DNA from: Sphingomonadaceae bacterium
Lineage (GTDB): Bacteria > Pseudomonadota > Alphaproteobacteria > Sphingomonadales > Sphingomonadaceae
Length of the DNA stretch: 64,000 nucleotides
NCBI GenBank assembly: GCA_024236195.1
Contig: JACKKZ010000002.1
Span: 10,805-74,804, forward strand
Direction of reading: 5' to 3'
In this document: in pieces, positions 3,437-46,827 of the stretch
Layout of the letters: each line of letters opens with the position of its first letter
Position numbering within the stretch: position 1 is the stretch's first letter
Notes under the pieces: model-generated
Told to the model about the DNA's origin: nothing
What the model saw: only the letters and a program-made list of their open reading frames with translations
The model's database searches: none
Made by a program: the position numbers and the translations under genes

Positions 3437-5017
3437 CTACCAGTCGACGATTTCGCCTTTGACTGCCTGCTTCTTCGCGCCCGCGATCCAGCCGACAAAA
3501 TGCGTCACATCGGTATAGACACCCGGCGTGTCGCGCAGCCCGCAGCCGGGGCCGAAAGATACCAGCCCGACAAGATAGGTAATCCCGCCCTTGCGCGTGA
3601 CCAGTGGACCGCCGCTGTCGCCCTTGCAGGAATCAACCCCACCCGGTGCCCCTGCGCAAAGCTGGCCAACCCCAACCGTCAGCCCGCGTTCGCGGAAATT
3701 GGGGTTGAAATTGCACTCGCTGCTGACCCGCAAGGTCAGGTCCGCCTGTTGCAGGATTGCCGAGAAATATTGCGGCTGACCAAAGCGATCCCTTACATCG
3801 GAAGTATTGAGCGTTTCGCCCGTCAGTCCCCAGCCCGTTACCCTCGCTTCCGTGCCTGAAGGGAAGCGCATGGAAACGCTTGGCGGCAGGGTCACCTGAT
3901 TGATCCCGCGACCCGTCGGTTTCTTGGTGAGGCGCAGCAAGGCAATATCATTGCCATCGCGCGCGCGGCGATAGCGCTTGTGCCGCACCACCGCGTCAAT
4001 CTCGAAGATCTGGCCGCCGTCATTAATTGTATCAGACCCCAGCCTGATCCGGCGCCCGTCAAAAAACAGGCTTTCGCGCCCACGCCAGTCGCCAATGCAA
4101 TGCGCGGCAGTGATCGCCCACCTGCCGCCAATATAGGCCGCCCCGCAAACATGGTTGTGCTGCCAGGAAGGCACTGGCTTGCCAAAATCCCTCAGGTCAA
4201 TGCTGCGCTGGCGCGGCGTCAGGTAGCTTTGCGCACTTTGCCCCGCACGCAGGATTTGCGCCTGCCACGGGGTTGCCCCGGCCGGAGCATCAATGCCCCT
4301 GATGAGTCGCTTGTAGCGGTCTTGCCAGAGATTGTAGAACCGTTCTTGCTCATTAGTGCAGACGGGCAATTGCGGCCCTGGCGCGGGAATCCAGCGGTCA
4401 CCGGGCCGCTCAACCCGGCAGCGCCATTCTTCATTCGGCGCAAACAGGGCAAAATGCAGGGCATCCGGACCGGCTACAGCCAGATATTCGGGCACAGCCC
4501 GCCATAAGTCAGGCTTGCGGACGTTGAGCATTTGCGCGAACTGCTGCGCCTGTTGCGGGCTGAGACCGGTGAGGAAATCGACCAGCTCCATCCCGCCCCC
4601 TGGCCGATCATCGAGCAGCAAGTCGACAAATATTCCGCGTCGCCCGACTGCGAGATTATCTGTGACCCGATACACTGCTGCCCGGGTCGGTGCATCGAGC
4701 GGGGCGAGCAAGATGCGCAGCGGACGGTCCTGTTCAGGCAGGATTTCCTGCCGGATCAGGACCCATGAGACGGCCTGCTCAGCAAAGGGATTATCGGGAT
4801 CAGGCTCGGCCGTCGGAAGAGTCCGAGGGACGATAACCGGTATCTCGTCCTCTTCCTCCTCCAGTGACGGGGGGCCGGGCAGCGGTTCCGGGAGGACCAC
4901 CACCGGGATCGCTCCGCCAGCGTCCAGAACCGCGTGGGGCAGGCCCTGCTCAGCGGCAGCTACGCCGTTGGGCAACGCCCCGGCCATTGCCAGAAAAGCT
5001 AGTGCAAGACGCTTCAT
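3437..5017 (-). CDS. secreted S1-family (trypsin-like) serine protease with a ~270-aa N-terminal domain of unknown function
   Basis: Signal peptide MKRLALAFLAMAGALPNGVAAA. The catalytic triad motifs are all present: WAITAAHC (His), NDIALLRL (Asp) and CKGDSGGPL (Ser). Confidence 0.8.
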   Translation of the reverse strand: MKRLALAFLAMAGALPNGVAAAEQGLPHAVLDAGGAIPVVVLPEPLPGPPSLEEEEDEIPVIVPRTLPTAEPDPDNPFAEQAVSWVLIRQEILPEQDRPLRILLAPLDAPTRAAVYRVTDNLAVGRRGIFVDLLLDDRPGGGMELVDFLTGLSPQQAQQFAQMLNVRKPDLWRAVPEYLAVAGPDALHFALFAPNEEWRCRVERPGDRWIPAPGPQLPVCTNEQERFYNLWQDRYKRLIRGIDAPAGATPWQAQILRAGQSAQSYLTPRQRSIDLRDFGKPVPSWQHNHVCGAAYIGGRWAITAAHCIGDWRGRESLFFDGRRIRLGSDTINDGGQIFEIDAVVRHKRYRRARDGNDIALLRLTKKPTGRGINQVTLPPSVSMRFPSGTEARVTGWGLTGETLNTSDVRDRFGQPQYFSAILQQADLTLRVSSECNFNPNFRERGLTVGVGQLCAGAPGGVDSCKGDSGGPLVTRKGGITYLVGLVSFGPGCGLRDTPGVYTDVTHFVGWIAGAKKQAVKGEIVDW

Positions 5018-5101
5018 TGCCCTTGCCCCGATCAGCCTGGCGGCTTCATCGGGCCGCGATCCGGGCCTTGCCAGCAAAACGCTGGCAGGGCCCGGAAAGG
5101 A

Positions 5102-5359
5102 TTAGCGGCCGATATCGTTGCCGCGGATTTCATCCTCTTCCTCAGCGGCAGGTGCGGGCGCAGCTGCCGTGTCACCTTCGGTCATGGCATCGGCCTCAGC
5201 GGCCCCTTCTTCCATCGCGCCTTCTTCCATGGTCGCATCTTCAGCTACCGCGGTTTCATCAGCCATGGTGTCTTCCGCAGCATCTTCCGCCGGAGCGGAA
5301 CAGGCAGCCAGGCCCAGCGCAAGGGCACCAGCGAGCGATACAAAACCAATTTTCTTCAT
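5102..5359 (-). CDS. small acidic lipoprotein
   Basis: Lipobox LALGLAAC after a short signal peptide. The mature part is Glu/Asp/Ala-rich low complexity. It starts 17 bp downstream of the TIR gene on the same strand. Confidence 0.55.
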   Translation of the reverse strand: MKKIGFVSLAGALALGLAACSAPAEDAAEDTMADETAVAEDATMEEGAMEEGAAEADAMTEGDTAAAPAPAAEEEDEIRGNDIGR

Positions 5360-5376: not shown

Positions 5377-7335
5377 CTATCCCTGCAGGAAGCCGAGATC
5401 GCGCAAGACTGCATCAAAGCGGGGTTCTTGTCGAATCGGGTCCAGCAGGGGATCGTTGAGCGCAAGGACCAGCCCGGAATCGCGCAATTGCCATGCCTGC
5501 TCAATTGCGGTCAGGGCGTCCGCTGACCGCCCCCATTGCGCCAGCACAACCGCTTGTTGGTAAAGCGAATTCTCGCCATATTCAGTTACCAGCTGGGCCA
5601 GCCGCACCTCACCTGCGGCAGCCCCCGACAGCTTGGCATCGGTCAAAGCCAGCCCGCACAGGCGCGACAAATTGCTCGGTTCCTGCTCGTAATGCGCCCG
5701 CGCCGACTCGGCATCGCCTGCCAGCCAGTCAATATCGCCGAGGAGCCGGTGTGCGACATTGACCTTTTCATTGAGCGACAAGGCCGTGCGCAGGGCACTG
5801 GTTGCTGCAGCATAATCACGCGCGGCAAATTCCACTGCGCCTTCGGTGCGAAAAACCGAGCTGTTGAGCGGATCGAGCCGTTCGGCACGCGCCACTGCTT
5901 CACGGGCATCATCAAAATCGCCCATGAACCCGGCATAAAGTGCAAAGCTGCCCAATATCCCGGCATTGCCATAACCCAGCTCGAAACTGGTGCGATAGGG
6001 CTGGCGCGCAGCCTGCATGTCGAGCTTGCCATTGGTAAGGATGAAGCCCAGCGCCGAATGGCCTTCGGCCAGATCCGGGGCCAGCCTGATCGCTTCGCGC
6101 GCCGATGCCATCGCGGCATCATAGGTGGCCTGCAATTGCGCGCCGGTGGAATAAGCGCTGCCGATCACCGTCAAGGCGCGCGACCGCGCCGCATGGGCCG
6201 CGGCATAGGCCGGATCGCGCGCAATCGCCGCATCGAAGGCCGCCAGCGCCGCGCGGTCCGAGGATTCGCTTGCCGCCAGATCATACAGCGCCACGCCTCT
6301 TAGAAAGTCATCCAGCGCCTGCGCATCGCGGGTTCCGCCGATCCGTTCGGTGCGGATCGTGTCATCGGCGGAGAGCGTAGCGACCAGCGCATCAGCGACC
6401 ATGGTTGCGATCTCGCCCTGCACCGCCAGCACATCGCGCAGGGGGCGTTCAAACACCTGTGACCATTGCTCCAGCCCGGTCCCGCCATTGACCAGCCGCG
6501 CGGCCACCCGCAGCCGGTCATCCCCGCGCCGAACGCTCCCTTCGAGGATAAAGGCCACACCCAGCGCCCTGGCGATTTCTTCGGCGCCCTTGCTGCCATC
6601 GCGGAACATGTTGGAGCTGGTTTGTGCGGCCACTTCGATCTGGCGATTAAGCGCCAGCGTCGCGCGCAATTCTTCAGCCAGCCCGTCAGAGAAATACTCC
6701 TGCTCCGGATCGCCGCTGAGATTGTCGAAAGCCATCACGGCGATGCTGGCATCATCCGGTCTGCTGCCACCCAGCAAGCCGCCGCGCCACAGCGCCAGCC
6801 CGGCCCCGGCGACCAGCACAGTCGATCCGCCAGCCAGCAACATCTTGCGGCGTGACAGGCCACCCGATGCCCCTTGCGCTGGGCCTGTGAAATTGAGTTG
6901 CGTGCCCGGTTCTGCCGCTACATGGCCGACAGCGCGCAGCAATTCAGTGAATTGCGCGGCGCTGGCATCACCCTTCCAGCCAGACAGGTCGATATACTGG
7001 ATCTGGCGAAAGCCAAGTGGCGGTTCGCTGCCGTCGAGCGAAACCGAGATCATGCAGCCCCGATCCCGGCCGCGGGTGGCTTCATCGCGCACCCAGTGGG
7101 ATTCGATCGAGCGGGCGCTCCACAGGACCACCACGACCTCTGCCTGTTCCAGCGCAGCCTCAGTGGTGTGCGAGAAGCGGTCACCCCCCGCCAGCAAGCC
7201 ATCCCACCACACGCTGATGCCATGGTCTTCCAAAGCCGCGATAATCGGCATGGCCGCTTCGCGGTCCTCGCGCGAGTAGCTCAGGAACACTGTATGTGTG
7301 GCTGCCGCAGTGGCCACCCAAGCCTCCCATACCAT
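5377..7335 (-). CDS. membrane-anchored TIR-domain protein with a TolB-like/TPR C-terminal region
   Basis: The N-terminal TIR signature is VFLSYSREDREAAMPIIAALEDHGISVWWD ... VVVVLWSARSIESHWVRDE, with the conserved Glu at residue 85. There is a single TM segment at residues ~164-183. It is followed by IAVMAFDNLSGDPEQEYFSDGLAEEL and about 350 aa of TPR-like Ala-rich repeats. Confidence 0.8.
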   Translation of the reverse strand: MVWEAWVATAAATHTVFLSYSREDREAAMPIIAALEDHGISVWWDGLLAGGDRFSHTTEAALEQAEVVVVLWSARSIESHWVRDEATRGRDRGCMISVSLDGSEPPLGFRQIQYIDLSGWKGDASAAQFTELLRAVGHVAAEPGTQLNFTGPAQGASGGLSRRKMLLAGGSTVLVAGAGLALWRGGLLGGSRPDDASIAVMAFDNLSGDPEQEYFSDGLAEELRATLALNRQIEVAAQTSSNMFRDGSKGAEEIARALGVAFILEGSVRRGDDRLRVAARLVNGGTGLEQWSQVFERPLRDVLAVQGEIATMVADALVATLSADDTIRTERIGGTRDAQALDDFLRGVALYDLAASESSDRAALAAFDAAIARDPAYAAAHAARSRALTVIGSAYSTGAQLQATYDAAMASAREAIRLAPDLAEGHSALGFILTNGKLDMQAARQPYRTSFELGYGNAGILGSFALYAGFMGDFDDAREAVARAERLDPLNSSVFRTEGAVEFAARDYAAATSALRTALSLNEKVNVAHRLLGDIDWLAGDAESARAHYEQEPSNLSRLCGLALTDAKLSGAAAGEVRLAQLVTEYGENSLYQQAVVLAQWGRSADALTAIEQAWQLRDSGLVLALNDPLLDPIRQEPRFDAVLRDLGFLQG

Positions 7336-7428
7336 TACAGGGGTTTGCTTAGTTGCTTCTGCCTACTATCGCTTGAGCTGACAAGCCCGCTGGCGGGCTG
7401 CCAGCGAAGGGGAGCATAACAAGCGATC
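7336..7428. promoter_or_regulatory. 93-bp divergent intergenic region shared by the TIR gene and the SLOG/SLATT gene
   Basis: This is the only non-coding DNA between the two start codons, so it must contain both promoters. It contains the small palindrome AGCCCGC-TG-GCGGGCT. Confidence 0.5.
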
Positions 7429-9387
7429 ATGGCACATGTCCCGCCACCGCCCGTGCCCCGCCTGTGCCTGGGCGTTACCGGCCATCGCGATACCCATCCC
7501 TTGCTGGCTGGAAAGCGCCCGCAGGTAGAGCAGGTATTCAATGAAATATGCGACCGGATCACTGCCGCGATTGCGAATGAGGCCCAAACGCTGGGGGATG
7601 TCGCGCCGGTCCGCTTGCATGGTGTGCTGGCTGACGGAACGGATCGGCTGGCGGCAGAAGCTGGCGCAGCGCGCAATTGGGACCTGGTGGCACCGCTGCC
7701 TTGCGGGCGCGATTTCTACACTGCCATTGCCAGCCTGCCTGCTGACGGGGCAGACGTGCGGGCGCTGCTGGCAGGCAAGGATGCGCAAGCCCCTGATGTG
7801 CAACAGCGCGCGGCTGCGCTGCGCGCATGGCTGGGCCGGGTGCGCCTGTTCGAACTGGCCGAATGCGATGCCAAGCTGTCCCCCTTCCTGCTGGCGACCG
7901 TAGATGATCCCGACAATGCAGAAGCTGCCCGCCAGTTTGAATGGCACTTGTCCGAACGGGTAGCGATGGCCGGGCGGGTGATGATCGAGCAATCCGATTT
8001 CCTGATCGCCGTATGGGACGGTGCCCTGCGCAATTTGCCCGGCGGCACCGGCCACACCATCAATGAAGCCTTGCATCAGGGTGCCGCTGTGGTGCGGATC
8101 GACCCGGCTGATCCGGGCAATTGGCATATCCTCCATGCACCGGAAGAGCTCCATGCCAATCCATCGACCGAAGGGCGCGAAGACGCCTTGGCCGCGCTGG
8201 TGCGCACAGCCCTGCGCCCTGGCGAAGGCGGTGCGTTGCGCGCTGGCGCGACAGCACTCGGCAATGAAGCCTGGCATCCGCGCAGCCACCCGCTGGCCAA
8301 TGCCTATCGCCGGGTCGAAGTGCTGTTTGACGGCGAAGGGCGTCCCTTCCGCTCGCTGAAAGAGGAATATGAAGCGCCGGAGGCCATCGCCAATGGCAGC
8401 GCAGCCGCGACGATGCAGGCCATTCGCGACCTGCCGAGGCTGGAGGCGGATTTTGCCACTCGGGTGGACCAGGCCGCGCTGCGCCGCTTTGCCTGGGCTG
8501 ACGGGATATCGACCTGGCTTTCCGATGCCTATCGCGGCGGGATGATCGCCAATTTCGTCCTTTCTGCTCTCGCGATTACCGCCGGGTTGGCCTACCAGCC
8601 GCTGGGGCTTGGCAAATGGCCCTTCGCGCTCGCTGAATTCCTGTTGCTCTCCACCATTGTCACCATCACCGCCTTGGGTGTGAAACGCCGCTGGCACACG
8701 CGCTGGTTTGCCACGCGCCGGGTGGCCGAATATCTGCGCCATTCGCCGATCCTGCAGGCGCTGGGCGTGGCCCGCCCGGCCGGGCGCTGGCCTCAGGGGA
8801 TCAAGACCAGCTGGCCCGAATATTATGCCCGCGCCGGCTGGCGCGAAGTCGGCTTGCCCGAAGTGGCGGTAACGCCGGACTATCTGCGCAGCGCGCTGTC
8901 AGATCTGCTGGCCCGGCATGTGCAAGATCAGCGTGACTATCACCGCAACAAATCGCGGCGGCTGCACCGCATCCATCACCGGCTGGACAAGATTTCGGAA
9001 TGGCTGTTCATCCTCGCCGTGCTGTCAGTCTCCGCCTATTTGCTGGTCGAACTTGGCGCGGCGCTGGGGTGGCTGGCAGCAGACCTGCCCTATCTCATTG
9101 CCAAGCCTGCAACCTTCCTGGGCGTGGCCTTCCCGACCTTTGGCGCGGCGCTGGCCGGAATGCGCTATTTCGGCGATTTCGAACGCTTTGCCAGCATTTC
9201 GCAAATGACCGCCGAGAAGCTGGACGGGATCGACCAGCGGATCACCCTGCTGCTCTCCGCAGAAAATAACTGCCTCACCTATGGCGAAGCGAGCGAGCTC
9301 GCCCATGCAGCCGATGCCGTGGTGGTGAGCGAGATCGAAAGCTGGCAGTCCGTGTTTGGCGGCAAACACATCACTGTGCCGGTTTGA
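7429..9387 (+). CDS. LOG/SLOG-like nucleotide-binding domain fused to two 2-TM SLATT-like modules (predicted membrane effector)
   Basis: Residues ~12-230 carry LGVTGHR, LADGTDRLAAE and FLIAVWDG-x6-PGGTGHTINEA, which resembles the PGGxGT..E signature of the LOG/SLOG Rossmann fold. There are hydrophobic hairpins at residues ~370-418 and ~523-580. They are flanked by basic helices (KRRWHTRWFATRR; DYHRNKSRRLHRIHHRLDK), as in SLATT/DUF4231 domains. The CDS call is strong. The domain call is made by eye. Confidence 0.7.
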   Translation: MAHVPPPPVPRLCLGVTGHRDTHPLLAGKRPQVEQVFNEICDRITAAIANEAQTLGDVAPVRLHGVLADGTDRLAAEAGAARNWDLVAPLPCGRDFYTAIASLPADGADVRALLAGKDAQAPDVQQRAAALRAWLGRVRLFELAECDAKLSPFLLATVDDPDNAEAARQFEWHLSERVAMAGRVMIEQSDFLIAVWDGALRNLPGGTGHTINEALHQGAAVVRIDPADPGNWHILHAPEELHANPSTEGREDALAALVRTALRPGEGGALRAGATALGNEAWHPRSHPLANAYRRVEVLFDGEGRPFRSLKEEYEAPEAIANGSAAATMQAIRDLPRLEADFATRVDQAALRRFAWADGISTWLSDAYRGGMIANFVLSALAITAGLAYQPLGLGKWPFALAEFLLLSTIVTITALGVKRRWHTRWFATRRVAEYLRHSPILQALGVARPAGRWPQGIKTSWPEYYARAGWREVGLPEVAVTPDYLRSALSDLLARHVQDQRDYHRNKSRRLHRIHHRLDKISEWLFILAVLSVSAYLLVELGAALGWLAADLPYLIAKPATFLGVAFPTFGAALAGMRYFGDFERFASISQMTAEKLDGIDQRITLLLSAENNCLTYGEASELAHAADAVVVSEIESWQSVFGGKHITVPV

Positions 9388-9405: not shown

Positions 9406-9717
9406 TCAGAACCGCTCCGGGCGGACCACGTCCACTTCCGACCGCAGCACCACCAGCCCATAGCTTTCCAGCAGCGGGGCAATGGATTCCAGGAAGCGGT
9501 CCGCGCGTTCGCTGTTGGCCACTGCGAGGAAGATGTATTTGGCAGTGGCACCGCTGATCAGGTCTTCGCTCCATTCCCCGCTCCGCCCTTTGCCGCTGGT
9601 TGTTCGGTAGAGCGTATAGCCGGTGAAGCCTGATTGATCCGCAAGCTCGCTCAACCTCGGCGCGAGGGGGGCGTCAACCAGCACTTCCAGCCGTATCCGG
9701 CGTGTCATCTCGATCAT
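9406..9717 (-). CDS. PII-like (SbtB-type) signalling protein
   Basis: 103-aa protein MIEMTRRIRLEVLVDAPL...GYTLYRTTSGKGRSGEW...VDVVRPERF. The length and the beta-alpha-beta pattern match the PII fold. The start forms an ATGA overlap with the upstream SbtA-like gene. The longer 219-aa ORF start is rejected. Confidence 0.7.
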   Translation of the reverse strand: MIEMTRRIRLEVLVDAPLAPRLSELADQSGFTGYTLYRTTSGKGRSGEWSEDLISGATAKYIFLAVANSERADRFLESIAPLLESYGLVVLRSEVDVVRPERF

Positions 9718-10679
9718 GCGACTGCTCCGATCTGTTCGGCCATCCAGCGAAACAGCGGAATGCCGAGGACTATATTGAAGGGGAAGGTGACCCCCAGCGA
9801 CATGGCAAGATACAGCCCCGCATCCGCTTGGGGCAGCGACAGGCGCATGGCCGCCGGGACCGCGATGTATGACGCACTCGCCGCCAATATGCCCAGGGCC
9901 GCGGCAGTTGGCGCGTCGAGCCCGATGGCGGTACCGGCCAGCACACCCACAGTGCCATTGACCAGCGGGAAGACCAGCGCAAGCACCACCAGCCGCGCAG
10001 TCAGCGCGCGCGTTTGCAGGATGCGGCGCATGGCAATCAGCCCCATGTCGAGCAGGAACAGGCACAGCACCCCGGTAAAGCCTGCCTTGAACAGCGGGCT
10101 GATCGGTTCGAACCCGGCCGGACCGATCAGCAGGCCGATGGCAAAGCTGCCCAGCAGCAGCACGACCGATCCGTTGAAGAACACTTCATGCAGCAAATGG
10201 CGATTGAGCAAGCCGCCGCTGCCATCGCGCCGCGCAATCAGCAGGCCAGACAGGATCGCGGGGGTTTCCATCATCGCCAGCACCGCCACCATGAAACCAG
10301 CAACCATGAACCCGTCTGCGCCATAGATCTGGCTGGCAGTGACAAAGGTCACCACGCTGACCGACCCGTAATGCGCCGCCACCGCGCCGCTATTGACCCG
10401 GTCAAGCCGTCCGAACCGGCGCAGCGCGGGGGCAATGGCAAAAGGAATCAGCGCGCTAAGCAGCAGGCCTGCCACCAGCGCCTTGGCCAGCTGCGCATTG
10501 ACGCCGGCATTGGCCACTTCCACCCCGCCCTTCAGTCCGATGGCCGCCATCAGGTAGAGCGACATGCCTTTGGCGATTGTCTCCGGCACGGCCAGGTCAG
10601 ATCGCACCGCCGCCGCGAGCACGCCCAGCAGGAAGAACAGGACTGGTGCAGAAAGCAGGGTCGCAGCAAGCTGGTCCAT
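9714..10679 (-). CDS. SbtA-like (DUF897) sodium-dependent bicarbonate transport family permease
   Basis: 321-aa polytopic membrane protein. The N-terminus LLSAPVLFFLLGVLAAAVRSDLAVPETIAKGMSLYLMAAIGLKGG is typical of the family. It is coupled to a PII-like gene. Confidence 0.8.
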   Translation of the reverse strand: MDQLAATLLSAPVLFFLLGVLAAAVRSDLAVPETIAKGMSLYLMAAIGLKGGVEVANAGVNAQLAKALVAGLLLSALIPFAIAPALRRFGRLDRVNSGAVAAHYGSVSVVTFVTASQIYGADGFMVAGFMVAVLAMMETPAILSGLLIARRDGSGGLLNRHLLHEVFFNGSVVLLLGSFAIGLLIGPAGFEPISPLFKAGFTGVLCLFLLDMGLIAMRRILQTRALTARLVVLALVFPLVNGTVGVLAGTAIGLDAPTAAALGILAASASYIAVPAAMRLSLPQADAGLYLAMSLGVTFPFNIVLGIPLFRWMAEQIGAVA

Positions 10680-10751
10680 GGGGAAACCTATCCTATGCGC
10701 ACACGGCCCCGACCTGCGCCAACAGGCCGGGGCATCAAAGTTGGCTGGTGT

Positions 10752-11498
10752 TTATTCCGGGGCGACCAGCAGCCGTCCGTTCAGCAACTGCACCGGGCGG
10801 GCATTCATGCCCATGGCCTGCTCCATCGCGGCAATCTGGGCCGGACTGGCTTCCACGGGAGTGGACAGGACATGCCAGTTGACCCCTTCGCTGCAGGGCG
10901 GCGTGGTGAGCGAGCCCATATAGCGATAGACGGCGCGATCTTCCGGTAGCAGTTTCCGAGGGTCGAAGCTGGCACCAGCCACGGTCTGCGCGGCCTGTTT
11001 CTTCATCGGTGCGGCATCGACCAGCTTCTGCAATTCGGCATTGGCATCGCCCGCTTCGAACATCACGCCCAGCACCGCCAGCGCGCCATCATCCGCCGCA
11101 TGGACGAAATGCGCGGTCAGCGGATAGGCCTTGCCATCCACCGTATGTTCGGACGGCGTATGGAAATGGACCTGCACCAGCTTGAAGCTCTTGCCGCCGC
11201 TGACCATGGTCGATCCTTCGGCGAAATTGGCTTGCACCGTGTGCCCATTATGCAGGACAGTCAGCGGCCCGGCCTGCCAGTTCACGTCAACGTCTATGTC
11301 CCCTGTTGCATTGGCTTGGCCAAGGTCAATCGGGGACTGCATGATCCCGGCTTCGCATTTCTCGAAATCCTTGTGCAACTGACCCCAGCGGTCAGCGCCA
11401 CGCGGACCTTCATAGGTCCAGTCAGCCGCAGCAAGAGCCGGAGCCGAAGCCAGACCGACACTGGCCAAAGCGACAATCAGGGATTTTTTCACAGGCAT
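10752..11498 (-). CDS. secreted alpha-class carbonic anhydrase
   Basis: Signal peptide followed by WTYEG..GADRWG...CEAGIMQSPIDL and QVHFHTPSEHTVDG...AHFVH, which supplies the zinc-ligand histidines. An alternative GTG start at 11492 has better SD spacing. Confidence 0.9.
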   Translation of the reverse strand: MPVKKSLIVALASVGLASAPALAAADWTYEGPRGADRWGQLHKDFEKCEAGIMQSPIDLGQANATGDIDVDVNWQAGPLTVLHNGHTVQANFAEGSTMVSGGKSFKLVQVHFHTPSEHTVDGKAYPLTAHFVHAADDGALAVLGVMFEAGDANAELQKLVDAAPMKKQAAQTVAGASFDPRKLLPEDRAVYRYMGSLTTPPCSEGVNWHVLSTPVEASPAQIAAMEQAMGMNARPVQLLNGRLLVAPE

Positions 11499-11503
11499 TC
11501 TCC

Positions 11504-12496
11504 TCAAAGATAGGGGGTAAGGGAATGGGCGAGATAGGCAGCATAGGCTGCCAGCAGGACGGCCCCGATCCAGCGGGACACGTGCAGTTTGAAGGCCACC
11601 ATCAACCACAGCAGCAAGGCGAGGCCAGTCAGCAGCGGCATTTCCAGCGTCGCAAAACCTGCCGGGATGGAGCTGGGCGCCGCCACCAGCACCACGCCGC
11701 CAATGGCGAGGATATTATAGATGTTGGAACCAAGGATATTGCCCAGCGCGATCCCGCCCTGCTTGCGGTATGCGGCCACGGCAGAGGTCACCAGTTCGGG
11801 CAGCGATGTGCCAATGGCAACCACGGTCAGGCCGATCACGGTTTCGCTCATCCCGGCAATGCGCGCGATTTCGACTGCGCCGCCAACCAGCAGATGCGCC
11901 CCGGCGACGAGCAACACCAGCCCCGTTATCAGCAGCAACACCGGCTTGGCATAACCATTGAGCGGCGCATGGATTTGCGTGTCCGCCATTTCCAGCGCTT
12001 CCGCACGGCTATGCGGGCCGCTGGTCGCAGATGCGGGCGAGCCGCCGCGTTCCAGCACATAACTCCAGTAAACATAGCCGATAATGCCCGCGATCAGGAC
12101 AAAGCCGACCCATGGCGCGGGCGAGGCATCGAGCGATACCAGCCACAATACCGCCGCCGCACCAACCGCGATCAACGGATCACGCCAGGCGCTGAATTCG
12201 CGCGTGGCAATCGGGAACATCAGCGCCGCCGCGCCCAGAATGAGCAGGCTATTGGCAATATTCGATCCGGCGACATTACCCCAGGCAATTCCCGGCGAAC
12301 CTGCCAGCACGGCATCAAGGCTGGCCGCCAGTTCCGGCAGCGAGGTGCCAAAACCGACGATAACTGTGCCCACCAGCGCGGCGGAAACCCCAGCGCGCTC
12401 GGCAATGCGCACGGCGCCGCGCACCAGCAATTCACCGCCCCCGATCAGCAGCACCAGCCCGCCGATCAGCGCGGCCAAAGACAGACCCATGCTCAT
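11504..12496 (-). CDS. CaCA-family cation/Ca2+ (Na+/Ca2+) antiporter, YrbG-like
   Basis: Two internal alpha-repeats, each with GTSLPEL (GFGTSLPELAASL and AIGTSLPELVTSA). The protein is 330 aa and polytopic. Confidence 0.85.
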   Translation of the reverse strand: MSMGLSLAALIGGLVLLIGGGELLVRGAVRIAERAGVSAALVGTVIVGFGTSLPELAASLDAVLAGSPGIAWGNVAGSNIANSLLILGAAALMFPIATREFSAWRDPLIAVGAAAVLWLVSLDASPAPWVGFVLIAGIIGYVYWSYVLERGGSPASATSGPHSRAEALEMADTQIHAPLNGYAKPVLLLITGLVLLVAGAHLLVGGAVEIARIAGMSETVIGLTVVAIGTSLPELVTSAVAAYRKQGGIALGNILGSNIYNILAIGGVVLVAAPSSIPAGFATLEMPLLTGLALLLWLMVAFKLHVSRWIGAVLLAAYAAYLAHSLTPYL

Positions 12497-46752: not shown

Positions 46753-46827
46753 TGGAGCGGGCGAAGAGATTCGAACTCTCGACCCCAACCTTGGCAAGGT
46801 TGTGCTCTACCCCTGAGCTACGCCCGC
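46753..46827 (-). tRNA. tRNA-Gly (anticodon GCC)
   Basis: The minus strand reads GCGGGCGTAGCTCAGGGGTAGAGCACAACCTTGCCAAGGTTGGGGTCGAGAGTTCGAATCTCTTCGCCCGCTCCA. This gives a 7-bp acceptor stem, D arm GCTC/GAGC, anticodon loop CTTGCCAAG, T loop TTCGAAT and an encoded CCA. Confidence 0.95.

Follow-up and report, generated by a model that had tools for sequence, protein, structure and literature searches.

A predicted receptor-type TIR protein and a linked SLOG/SLATT-like membrane protein in Sphingomonadaceae: a putative envelope-sensing relative of Thoeris

As described, the TIR proteins characterised in Thoeris systems detect phage infection and produce their signal within the cell. In the 64,000-nucleotide stretch analysed here (the window; Sphingomonadaceae bacterium, assembly GCA_024236195.1, contig JACKKZ010000002.1, positions 10,805 to 74,804), two genes, A (5377..7335, minus strand) and B (7429..9387, plus strand), encode respectively a TIR protein and a membrane protein with a SLOG-like domain. 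Judged from the sequence, they appear to belong to a conserved module of four genes: A encodes a TIR protein that is anchored in the membrane and carries a periplasmic sensor, B a SLOG-like protein with two SLATT units, and the other two genes a small lipoprotein and a trypsin-like protease that is secreted. In its make-up the module resembles Thoeris TIR signalling, of which it would be an unusual variant that senses the envelope, a function that we infer. An initial annotation of this DNA had placed the two open reading frames (ORFs) exactly, 93 bp apart and divergent; its A/B pair stands, but it had missed the lipoprotein, the protease and the receptor nature of A.

The closest described arrangement is contained in a December 2025 preprint, where "4TM SLOG" or "SLOG and 4TM" effectors are found beside TIRs, among 29 putative types (bioRxiv 10.64898/2025.12.03.692087, Tables S1-S2). 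The pairing of a TIR gene with an effector made of SLOG plus four transmembrane (TM) helices corresponds to the architecture of B and is matched by the Table S2 label; it is proposed there as a membrane effector activated by a TIR signal, and is an unverified candidate. A lipoprotein/trypsin component is not described for the "SLOG and 4TM" type, whereas one is present in the window module. When the TIR-domain sequences alone are compared, the TIR of A is matched weakly by that of the Streptomyces "SLOG and 4TM" system and has no match in the Nitrospira TIR; a query with the latter for "4TM SLOG" effector loci returned only homologs of at most 64% identity, with no effector neighbour.

TIR plus SLATT has been validated in the same preprint as Thoeris type VII, the signal of which is canonical cyclic ADP-ribose (cADPR; 10.64898/2025.12.03.692087). 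SLATT is a two-TM (2TM) effector associated with SMODS and SLOG, and its predicted gating is by nucleotides, including the ADP-ribose (ADPr) derivatives made by TIRs (PMC7159879, PMC9503650). The likeness of our locus to type VII (ThsB TIR plus ThsH SLATT) lies in the linkage of a TIR gene to a SLATT-type membrane assembly that is, or in our case would be, nucleotide-activated. ThsH, however, is annotated as a SLATT protein with ligand pockets between the SLATT protomers, whereas B carries a separate N-terminal SLOG-like putative sensor and two SLATT units, and A, unlike the type VII TIR protein, is predicted to be a membrane receptor. With Thoeris type I (ThsB plus ThsA, a SIR2/TM-SLOG protein; 3'cADPR) the locus shares a SLOG-clan domain that presumably receives a nucleotide made by the TIR, but B has no SIR2 domain and matches none of the ThsA profile models in PADLOC, and its fold neighbours are DprA, ShosA, YpsA and LOG.

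The wiring, which the initial annotation had not recognised as a described system, is therefore not without precedent: TIR with SLATT is type VII, and the combination of TIR with SLOG-4TM is already catalogued, although unvalidated (10.64898/2025.12.03.692087). What is new is that the TIR protein is predicted to be a transmembrane receptor accompanied by periplasmic partners, and that B belongs to a family of the SLOG clan which current hidden Markov model (HMM) libraries miss. In the literature we found no description of a receptor-type TIR, a lipoprotein or a protease within such a system.

The receptor-type TIR protein and the SLOG/SLATT-like protein

Gene A is an ORF of 652 amino acids (aa) for which profile matches and topology indicate a cytoplasmic TIR domain and a single TM helix, followed in the periplasm by an alpha/beta domain and TPR repeats. 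The TIR_2 domain (residues 16-132, at 6940..7290 on the minus strand, with S-x-W-V-x-x-E85) was recognised by Pfam at E=7.1e-23, scoring 81.8 bits against a gathering cut-off of 28, and the translation contains the motifs VFLSYSREDRE and LWSARSIESHWVRDE. The initial identification of a TIR domain at the start of A with Glu85 is thereby upheld, and this residue, in its S-x-W-x-x-x-E motif, is 100% conserved across 43 TIR domains encoded beside relatives of B. Glu85 is predicted to be the catalytic-type Glu of TIRs that process nicotinamide adenine dinucleotide (NAD), and A may have NADase or cyclase activity. Among the PDB sequences, the solved TIR closest to A is the NAD+ hydrolase AbTIR, a weak match (E=0.006).

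The single TM helix of A occupies residues 165-183 (6787..6843, minus strand; hydropathy 1.71 over 19 residues). Since this is the only hydrophobic segment in A and no signal peptide was found, the TIR domain is placed in the cytoplasm and residues ~190-652 in the periplasm. The periplasmic sensor module (5383..6753, minus strand) comprises a domain with IAVMAFDNLSGDPEQEYFSDG (residues 195-340) and, from residue 341 to 651, TPR repeats with their end-cap. Pfam and NCBIfam matches (TPR families, and in NCBIfam the TPR end-cap) cover residues ~367-644, and the first domain, with IAVMAFDNLSGDPEQEYFSDG, corresponds to no Pfam family.

A scan of metagenomes showed that at least 595 stretches encode relatives of this periplasmic module, the scan being dominated by the generic periplasmic motif GDPEQEYF and the matches being distant (25-38% identity). 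Among the relatives without TIR, some have a Ser/Thr kinase in the cytoplasm (Pkinase, E as low as 1e-55) and others a winged helix of the CadC/OmpR type (Trans_reg_C, E as low as 8e-18). These receptor Ser/Thr kinases and CadC-like winged helix-turn-helix regulators have the homologous "NLSGDPEQEYF" domain plus TPR and are single-pass, as is A; they differ from A in that its cytoplasmic output is a TIR, not a kinase or DNA-binding domain. Because the module is common to both kinds of protein, the TIR occupies the position of a signalling output, and A is predicted to be a receptor-type protein in which TIR stands where a signalling output domain would be. The IAVLP(L/F)xNLSGDPEQEYFxDG domain plus TPR recurs widely as the ectodomain of receptors, for example at metagenome loci L104, L107, L110, L117, L127 and L162 (loci are referred to by L numbers).

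Gene B is likewise a 652-aa ORF, with a SLOG-like domain placed in the cytoplasm, a helical linker and two SLATT-like 2TM hairpins, which give four TM helices. There are 1620 homologs, the top 120 being full-length with 54-62% identity; the mean column identity is 67% and many residues are invariant across orders. The full-length AlphaFold2 (AF2) model has a mean predicted local distance difference test score (pLDDT) of 90.8. A fold search with the whole protein was swamped by helical membrane proteins, and the N-terminal domain (residues 1-245; 7429..8163, plus strand) was therefore modelled alone, with pLDDT 95.8. It has a Rossmann-like fold containing a helical insert of ~95 residues (residues ~94-188); compact members of the family are without an insert at residues ~120-178.

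The placement of this domain in the SLOG clan derives from structure comparison. In a Foldseek search of the PDB the best match was ShosA (8zva, E=1.2e-3), followed by DprA of S. pneumoniae (3uqz), the LOG-like TM1055 (1rcu) and DprA of H. pylori; every match with a probability of at least 0.9 was to ShosA, DprA or TM1055 (E 1e-3 to 0.17, TM-scores 0.36-0.51). Another member of the SLOG clan, the Moco carrier protein (2iz7), was a low-probability match (0.35). ThsA was not among the top 50 PDB matches, and the initial view of the domain as a type-I-like, ThsA-type sensor gives way to a resemblance to the DprA/YpsA branch. Against predicted viral structures (BFVD), Foldseek gave 10 matches with E<=1e-3, the best at 3e-8 and with TM-scores up to 0.73; those with names are DprA-like, "cpYpsA-related SLOG" and DUF2493 proteins. 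With this DprA/Smf, ShosA and cpYpsA/DUF2493 branch, the source of its best fold matches, the domain has in common the Rossmann-like core and glycine-rich loops. It differs in having no profile similarity to the branch, in the helical insert and in the fused membrane hairpins; DprA binds single-stranded DNA and ShosA is an antitoxin, whereas B is membrane-fused. On the strength of these model comparisons we accept the domain as a SLOG-clan fold of the DprA/YpsA branch.

At the sequence level, the sole hint of the SLOG clan is a YpsA match (E=0.077) in one distant relative of B. Two B family profiles run against PDB sequences gave nothing significant. A nucleoside 2-deoxyribosyltransferase assignment was marginal (E=0.38) and was lost with a broader profile, and an hhalign comparison with E. 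coli Smf reached a probability of 1.5%. The domain family comprises 1193 cluster representatives at E<=1e-3, and nearly all of the 550-800 aa proteins listed are of one length class. One 806-aa relative (P0141) combines the B-type N-domain with a long unrelated soluble C-terminal region in place of the SLATT hairpins; it is perhaps a chimera or an assembly artefact, or else another kind of effector fusion.

The motifs that had been quoted for this domain (LGVTGHR, LADGTDR and LIAVWDG...PGGTGHTINE) are all present in the translation, although the spacer from WDG to PGG is of 5 residues and not 6. Conserved loops of the family are hGVTGHR, AxGxD(R/Q) (LAEGxDR), PLPF, D190 and WDG-x6-GGT, and the glycine-rich loops lie at the ends of strands. 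W196-D197-G198 and G205-G206-T207 show little or no variation; the invariant residues are the loop glycines with H19, R20, D72 and D190, and an obvious LOG-type catalytic Glu is absent. The LOG/SLOG signature PGGxGT..E, on which the first assignment leaned, survives in part only: GGT is invariant, but the proline (P204) occurs in 5/51 and the glutamate (E213) in 2/51 close homologs, E213 being found in 14/31 of a diverse set.

The first SLATT-like unit of B (residues ~346-445; 8464..8763, plus strand) consists of an amphipathic helix, TM helices 370-389 and 397-419 and a basic helix; the second (residues ~483-645; 8875..9363, plus strand) consists of a long helix, TM helices 521-549 and 553-582 and C-terminal helices, and carries an invariant RYFGDFERF. 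Both were delineated by hydropathy and the AF2 model. Each hairpin is preceded and followed by long helices, with basic stretches on the cytoplasmic side, and from this positive-inside pattern the N-domain of B and the TIR of A are both cytoplasmic. B thus has the SLATT layout, namely 2TM hairpins flanked by helices and fused to a nucleotide-related (SLOG-like) domain. NCBIfam SLATT_1 matched two stretches of B (E=4.3e-8, best stretch 353-438) and Pfam DUF4231 matched weakly (E=0.011). Eight of ten distant homologs match SLATT_1 (E<1e-5) in one half or in both, and several relatives bear precomputed PF14015, PF18181 or PF18184 matches. In relatives SLATT_1 also matches the second unit, and one homolog, P0219, lies above both cut-offs (SLATT_1, 55.9 against 41 bits at residues 468-591; DUF4231, 26.1 against 24.7). 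The two SLATT/DUF4231-like hairpins seen at the outset are thus supported by hydropathy, by the model and by this relative, although B itself falls below the cut-off.

Linkage of the two genes across genomes

Relatives of B were found in 385/185,579 species genomes, mostly of Sphingomonadales, Caulobacterales and Hyphomonadaceae, with a few in Gamma- and Betaproteobacteria, an acidobacterial metagenome-assembled genome (MAG) and other MAGs. For the analysis of neighbours, ORFs were called in 80 B loci and the window (n=81) and clustered all-against-all, and the families were ranked by locus count; a locus counted as fully flanked when 6 kb or more lay on each side of B (n=39), and shadow ORFs overlapping B were set aside. 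The TIR family is the top neighbour, at 43 of the 81 loci and at 24 of the 39 fully flanked ones (62%), which bears out the initial expectation that A and B are co-conserved in related genomes. The trypsin family ranks second (21/81; 15/39), and every other family, all of them generic, is present at no more than 9/81 loci (<=11%).

The linkage is kept through at least seven gene orders. The genes are divergent and adjacent in the window and in L017, L030 and L083, and B precedes A on the same strand with a 150-bp gap in L028 and L032. Trypsin genes stand between the two in the orders A-trypsin-trypsin-B (L045, L048-50, L057) and B-trypsin-A (L060, L062, L065, L066, L070), and two to four tandem TIR paralogs lie just upstream of B in L040, L061, L071 and L079. 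The caveat that the genes are divergent and not operonic is therefore true of the window, but in many genomes the TIR gene and B are co-directional and adjacent. The architecture of the B-linked TIR proteins is mostly TIR-TM-TPR, others being TIR-FGE-sulfatase, TIR-AAA_16-TPR and TIR-nSTAND1-TPR, and a compact B relative of an unrelated lineage has the gene of a 382-aa TIR protein 100 bp downstream. That the TIR domain is constant while gene order and TIR architecture vary suggests that the functional link runs through this domain and not through the receptor part. The pairing of A and B is real, but it is not universal.

Other signal generators were looked for at the B loci without TIR, and the recurrent neighbours there were merely generic: SDR, ABC ATPase, enoyl-CoA hydratase and RNase II, and likewise TonB receptor, acyl-CoA dehydrogenase and AMP-binding enzymes.

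Several individual loci deserve mention. On a Sphingobium lactosutens-like contig (L003, 9920-11464) the gene of a CHAT (caspase-like) protease, which could be an additional effector, lies 33 bp downstream of B on the same strand. In a Sphingopyxis MAG (L059, ~9900-11900) B is followed by two trypsin-like genes with no TIR gene within 8 kb, and by this gene content a link of the protease to B is possible without an adjacent TIR gene. A Steroidobacteraceae MAG (L078) has up to seven TIR-family ORFs or fragments around B, including a 925-aa TIR-FGE-sulfatase fusion. The compact B relative P0277 (L167/L168, 7839-13842) is found beside genes for patatin, an unassigned 253-aa protein, a DUF4062 protein and a giant nSTAND1-WD40 protein, a neighbourhood that looks like a conflict system.

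Periplasmic partners and surroundings of the module

Directly 3' of A, after 17 bp, lies the gene of a small, very acidic lipoprotein of 85 aa (5102..5359, minus strand) with the lipobox LAAC and the C-terminus ...DEIRGNDIGR. After a further gap of 24 bp it is followed by the gene of a secreted trypsin-like serine protease (3437..5077, minus strand; 546 aa from a TTG start; Pfam Trypsin E=1.7e-40; signal peptide) in which the motifs of the H/D/S triad are intact (AAHC, DIAL, GDSGGP). The TTG is 20 codons upstream of an ATG at 5017 that directly precedes the signal peptide, and from the sequence this ATG is likely to be the true start. The protease domain spans residues 298-531, and the ~280 residues N-terminal to it match no family.

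In at least 12 related loci, as in the window, the TIR-receptor gene is followed immediately 3' by a lipoprotein gene, namely at L001 5551-5763, L003 5528-5797, L017 4789-5055, L030 5535-5858, L083 5538-5867, L034 1678-1911, L037 5512-5757, L060 12062-12325, L062 12063-12419, L070 4764-5027, L026 3293-3529 and L020 8149-8427. The products, of 75-118 aa, cannot be aligned with one another, yet they have in common the lipobox, an acidic Ala-rich body and, at the C-terminus, short tandem repeats rich in G/N/D/Q/R: DRGNN, GNPGDR, DDRGNP, GSNDQ and QTGGD, with RGNDIGR in the window. Those repeats that contain Arg may, by their composition, be cleaved by the trypsin-like protease encoded next to them. 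The TPR ectodomain, the lipoprotein and the protease would all three meet in the periplasm.

The 93-bp divergent region between A and B (7336..7428) presumably holds the promoters of both. A consensus scan found no sigma-70-like site inside it, and the matches from promoter and terminator scans of the locus were no better than chance. The region contains a palindrome (GCCCGC-TG-GCGGGC, 7385-7398) that may be an operator or may only reflect GC-rich DNA. The chromosomal surroundings of the module differ between sphingomonad genomes. Around the module in the window we saw no signs of a mobile element (no flanking repeats and no Rfam match), and no tRNA gene is near, the sole one being at 46753. 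Directly downstream of B (9406-11609, minus strand) is a cluster of the carbon-concentrating type, with genes for a P-II-like protein, a Na+/bicarbonate transporter of the SbtA type (Sbt_1, E=4e-106) and an alpha-carbonic anhydrase; this cluster seems to have nothing to do with the TIR/SLOG-SLATT module.

A proposed relay, its alternatives and its meaning

We propose that the four genes form a Thoeris-like signalling relay with a sensor facing the envelope, a reading that we consider evenly poised between right and wrong. The periplasmic domain and TPR repeats of A would perceive an extracytoplasmic cue, in whose production, processing or presentation the co-transcribed lipoprotein and the secreted protease probably have a part. 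The cue would activate the cytoplasmic TIR of A, presumably via clustering, and the TIR, with Glu85, would convert NAD+ into an ADP-ribose-derived nucleotide, for example a cADPR isomer. This nucleotide would bind the cytoplasmic SLOG-like domain of B, and in ligand-bound B the two SLATT hairpins would open or oligomerise in the inner membrane, depolarising or permeabilising the cell and so leading to growth arrest or death. The most likely role of such a relay would be defence against phage or another envelope-attacking agent. What the analysis establishes is the identity of the domains, the topologies, with the TIR and the SLOG-like domain on the same side of the membrane, and the conserved linkage of the genes; the enzymatic activity, the ligand binding, the pore, the trigger and the role in defence are putative.

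A number of observations weigh against this proposal. The N-domain has no profile support: residues 1-345 of B match no HMM in Pfam, NCBIfam or PADLOC, so that its membership of SLOG/LOG, as first claimed, is borne out by fold only (ShosA, DprA, LOG-like and BFVD matches). The SLATT_1 score of B, 33.2 bits, is below the curated cut-off of 41. No TIR gene lies within 8 kb at 15 of the 39 fully flanked B loci, and none of 26 distant metagenomic TIR-receptor loci has a B gene, a weak test as these are mostly on short contigs. In BLAST comparisons the TIR of A has no detectable similarity to two type VII TIRs, and only weak, non-specific matches to the Thoeris TIRs of the preprint, those of the "4TM SLOG" type included. 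In E. coli the "SLOG and 4TM" systems of Streptomyces sp. GKU 895 and Ca. Nitrospira nitrosa gave no defence (10.64898/2025.12.03.692087). The defence role suggested at the outset finds no backing in PADLOC-DB v2.0.0, where B has no match and A only generic partial TIR matches (ThsB1, E=1.9e-5), this library predating Thoeris types V-XI, nor in the flanks: the module and the related B loci alike sit among housekeeping genes and not in defence islands. The GC content is flat over the region, as the initial annotation had noted.

Several of these points would suit the same wiring put to a physiological purpose, that is, an outside-in second-messenger pathway in which B is a regulated ion channel and the receptor reports some cue from the envelope or the environment, for instance a protease-processed lipoprotein, cell-wall damage or kin contact. 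We regard this main rival as unlikely. It accords with the architecture of A, which is that of one-component transmembrane receptors whose relatives bear kinase or DNA-binding outputs, with the periplasmic partners, and with the housekeeping context and the lack of a PADLOC match for B; the strong conservation of B (67% mean column identity), the "SLOG and 4TM" candidates that gave no phage defence in E. coli and the presence of TRPM channels among the low-probability whole-protein fold matches of B point the same way. The patchy distribution (385/185,579 species genomes), however, is typical of accessory conflict systems, STAND NTPase fusions among the B-linked TIRs and the CHAT, patatin and nSTAND genes at some loci are hallmarks of conflict, and the known SLATT-containing systems are defence effectors. 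A bolder reading, which we likewise hold to be unlikely, is a bacterial outside-in TIR receptor pathway: the protease would act on the repeat-tailed lipoprotein and so feed a single-pass receptor with a periplasmic repeat ectodomain, and the NAD-derived product of its TIR would gate a SLOG-SLATT channel.

The TIR could instead be a toxic effector that itself depletes NAD+, with B as a modulator or parallel arm and not the downstream target. In that case the SLOG-like domain might bind the TIR product or a nucleotide, sequester it or hydrolyse it, serving for immunity or as an antitoxin in the manner of ShosA; or B might be a membrane effector in its own right. In Avs-type proteins, which the TIR-STAND fusions beside B resemble, it is the TIR that acts as effector; the best PDB fold match of the N-domain is ShosA, a DprA-like antitoxin, and B is often without a TIR neighbour. 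The preprint, too, cautions that the TIRs of unverified configurations may be NAD+-depleting effectors (10.64898/2025.12.03.692087). A sensor-type domain joined to two SLATT hairpins is, however, the layout of an effector and not of a soluble antitoxin, and among the invariant residues of the N-domain there is no obvious LOG-type catalytic Glu, E213 not being conserved; we judge this explanation distinctly improbable. Most improbable of all is that A, the lipoprotein and the protease are an envelope module unrelated to B and adjacent to it by chance. The divergence of A and B in the window, the distant TIR-receptor loci without B and the ~38% of fully flanked B loci without a TIR gene would fit such an accident, but the neighbour analysis disfavours it: TIR is present at 62% of fully flanked loci, other specific families reach at most 11% of all loci, and the linkage survives rearrangements and changes of TIR architecture and recurs in the distant compact subfamily.

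The Thoeris-like relay has functional analogies in eukaryotes. In TRPM2, the binding of ADP-ribose (ADPR) to the SLOG-like MHR1/2 domain gates a cation channel. Toll and the Toll-like receptors (TLR) cross the membrane once, carrying a repeat domain outside the cell and a TIR in the cytoplasm, and the Drosophila ligand of Toll is processed by a serine protease. The parallels of TRPM2 to B and of Toll to A are purely functional.

Even if the proposed wiring is false, a new family of the SLOG clan has come to light that escapes current profile libraries. If it is true, bacterial signalling by TIR and NAD-derived nucleotides would extend to sensing of the envelope, the widespread, unvalidated "SLOG and 4TM" effector class would gain a well-defined and conserved test case in ~385 species genomes, and B would be a prokaryotic counterpart of SLOG-gated membrane conductance. 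Should the outside-in reading hold, the module would be the first bacterial TIR system to sense extracytoplasmic events, with formal counterparts in Toll/Spaetzle/protease signalling and in the gating of TRPM2 by ADPR.

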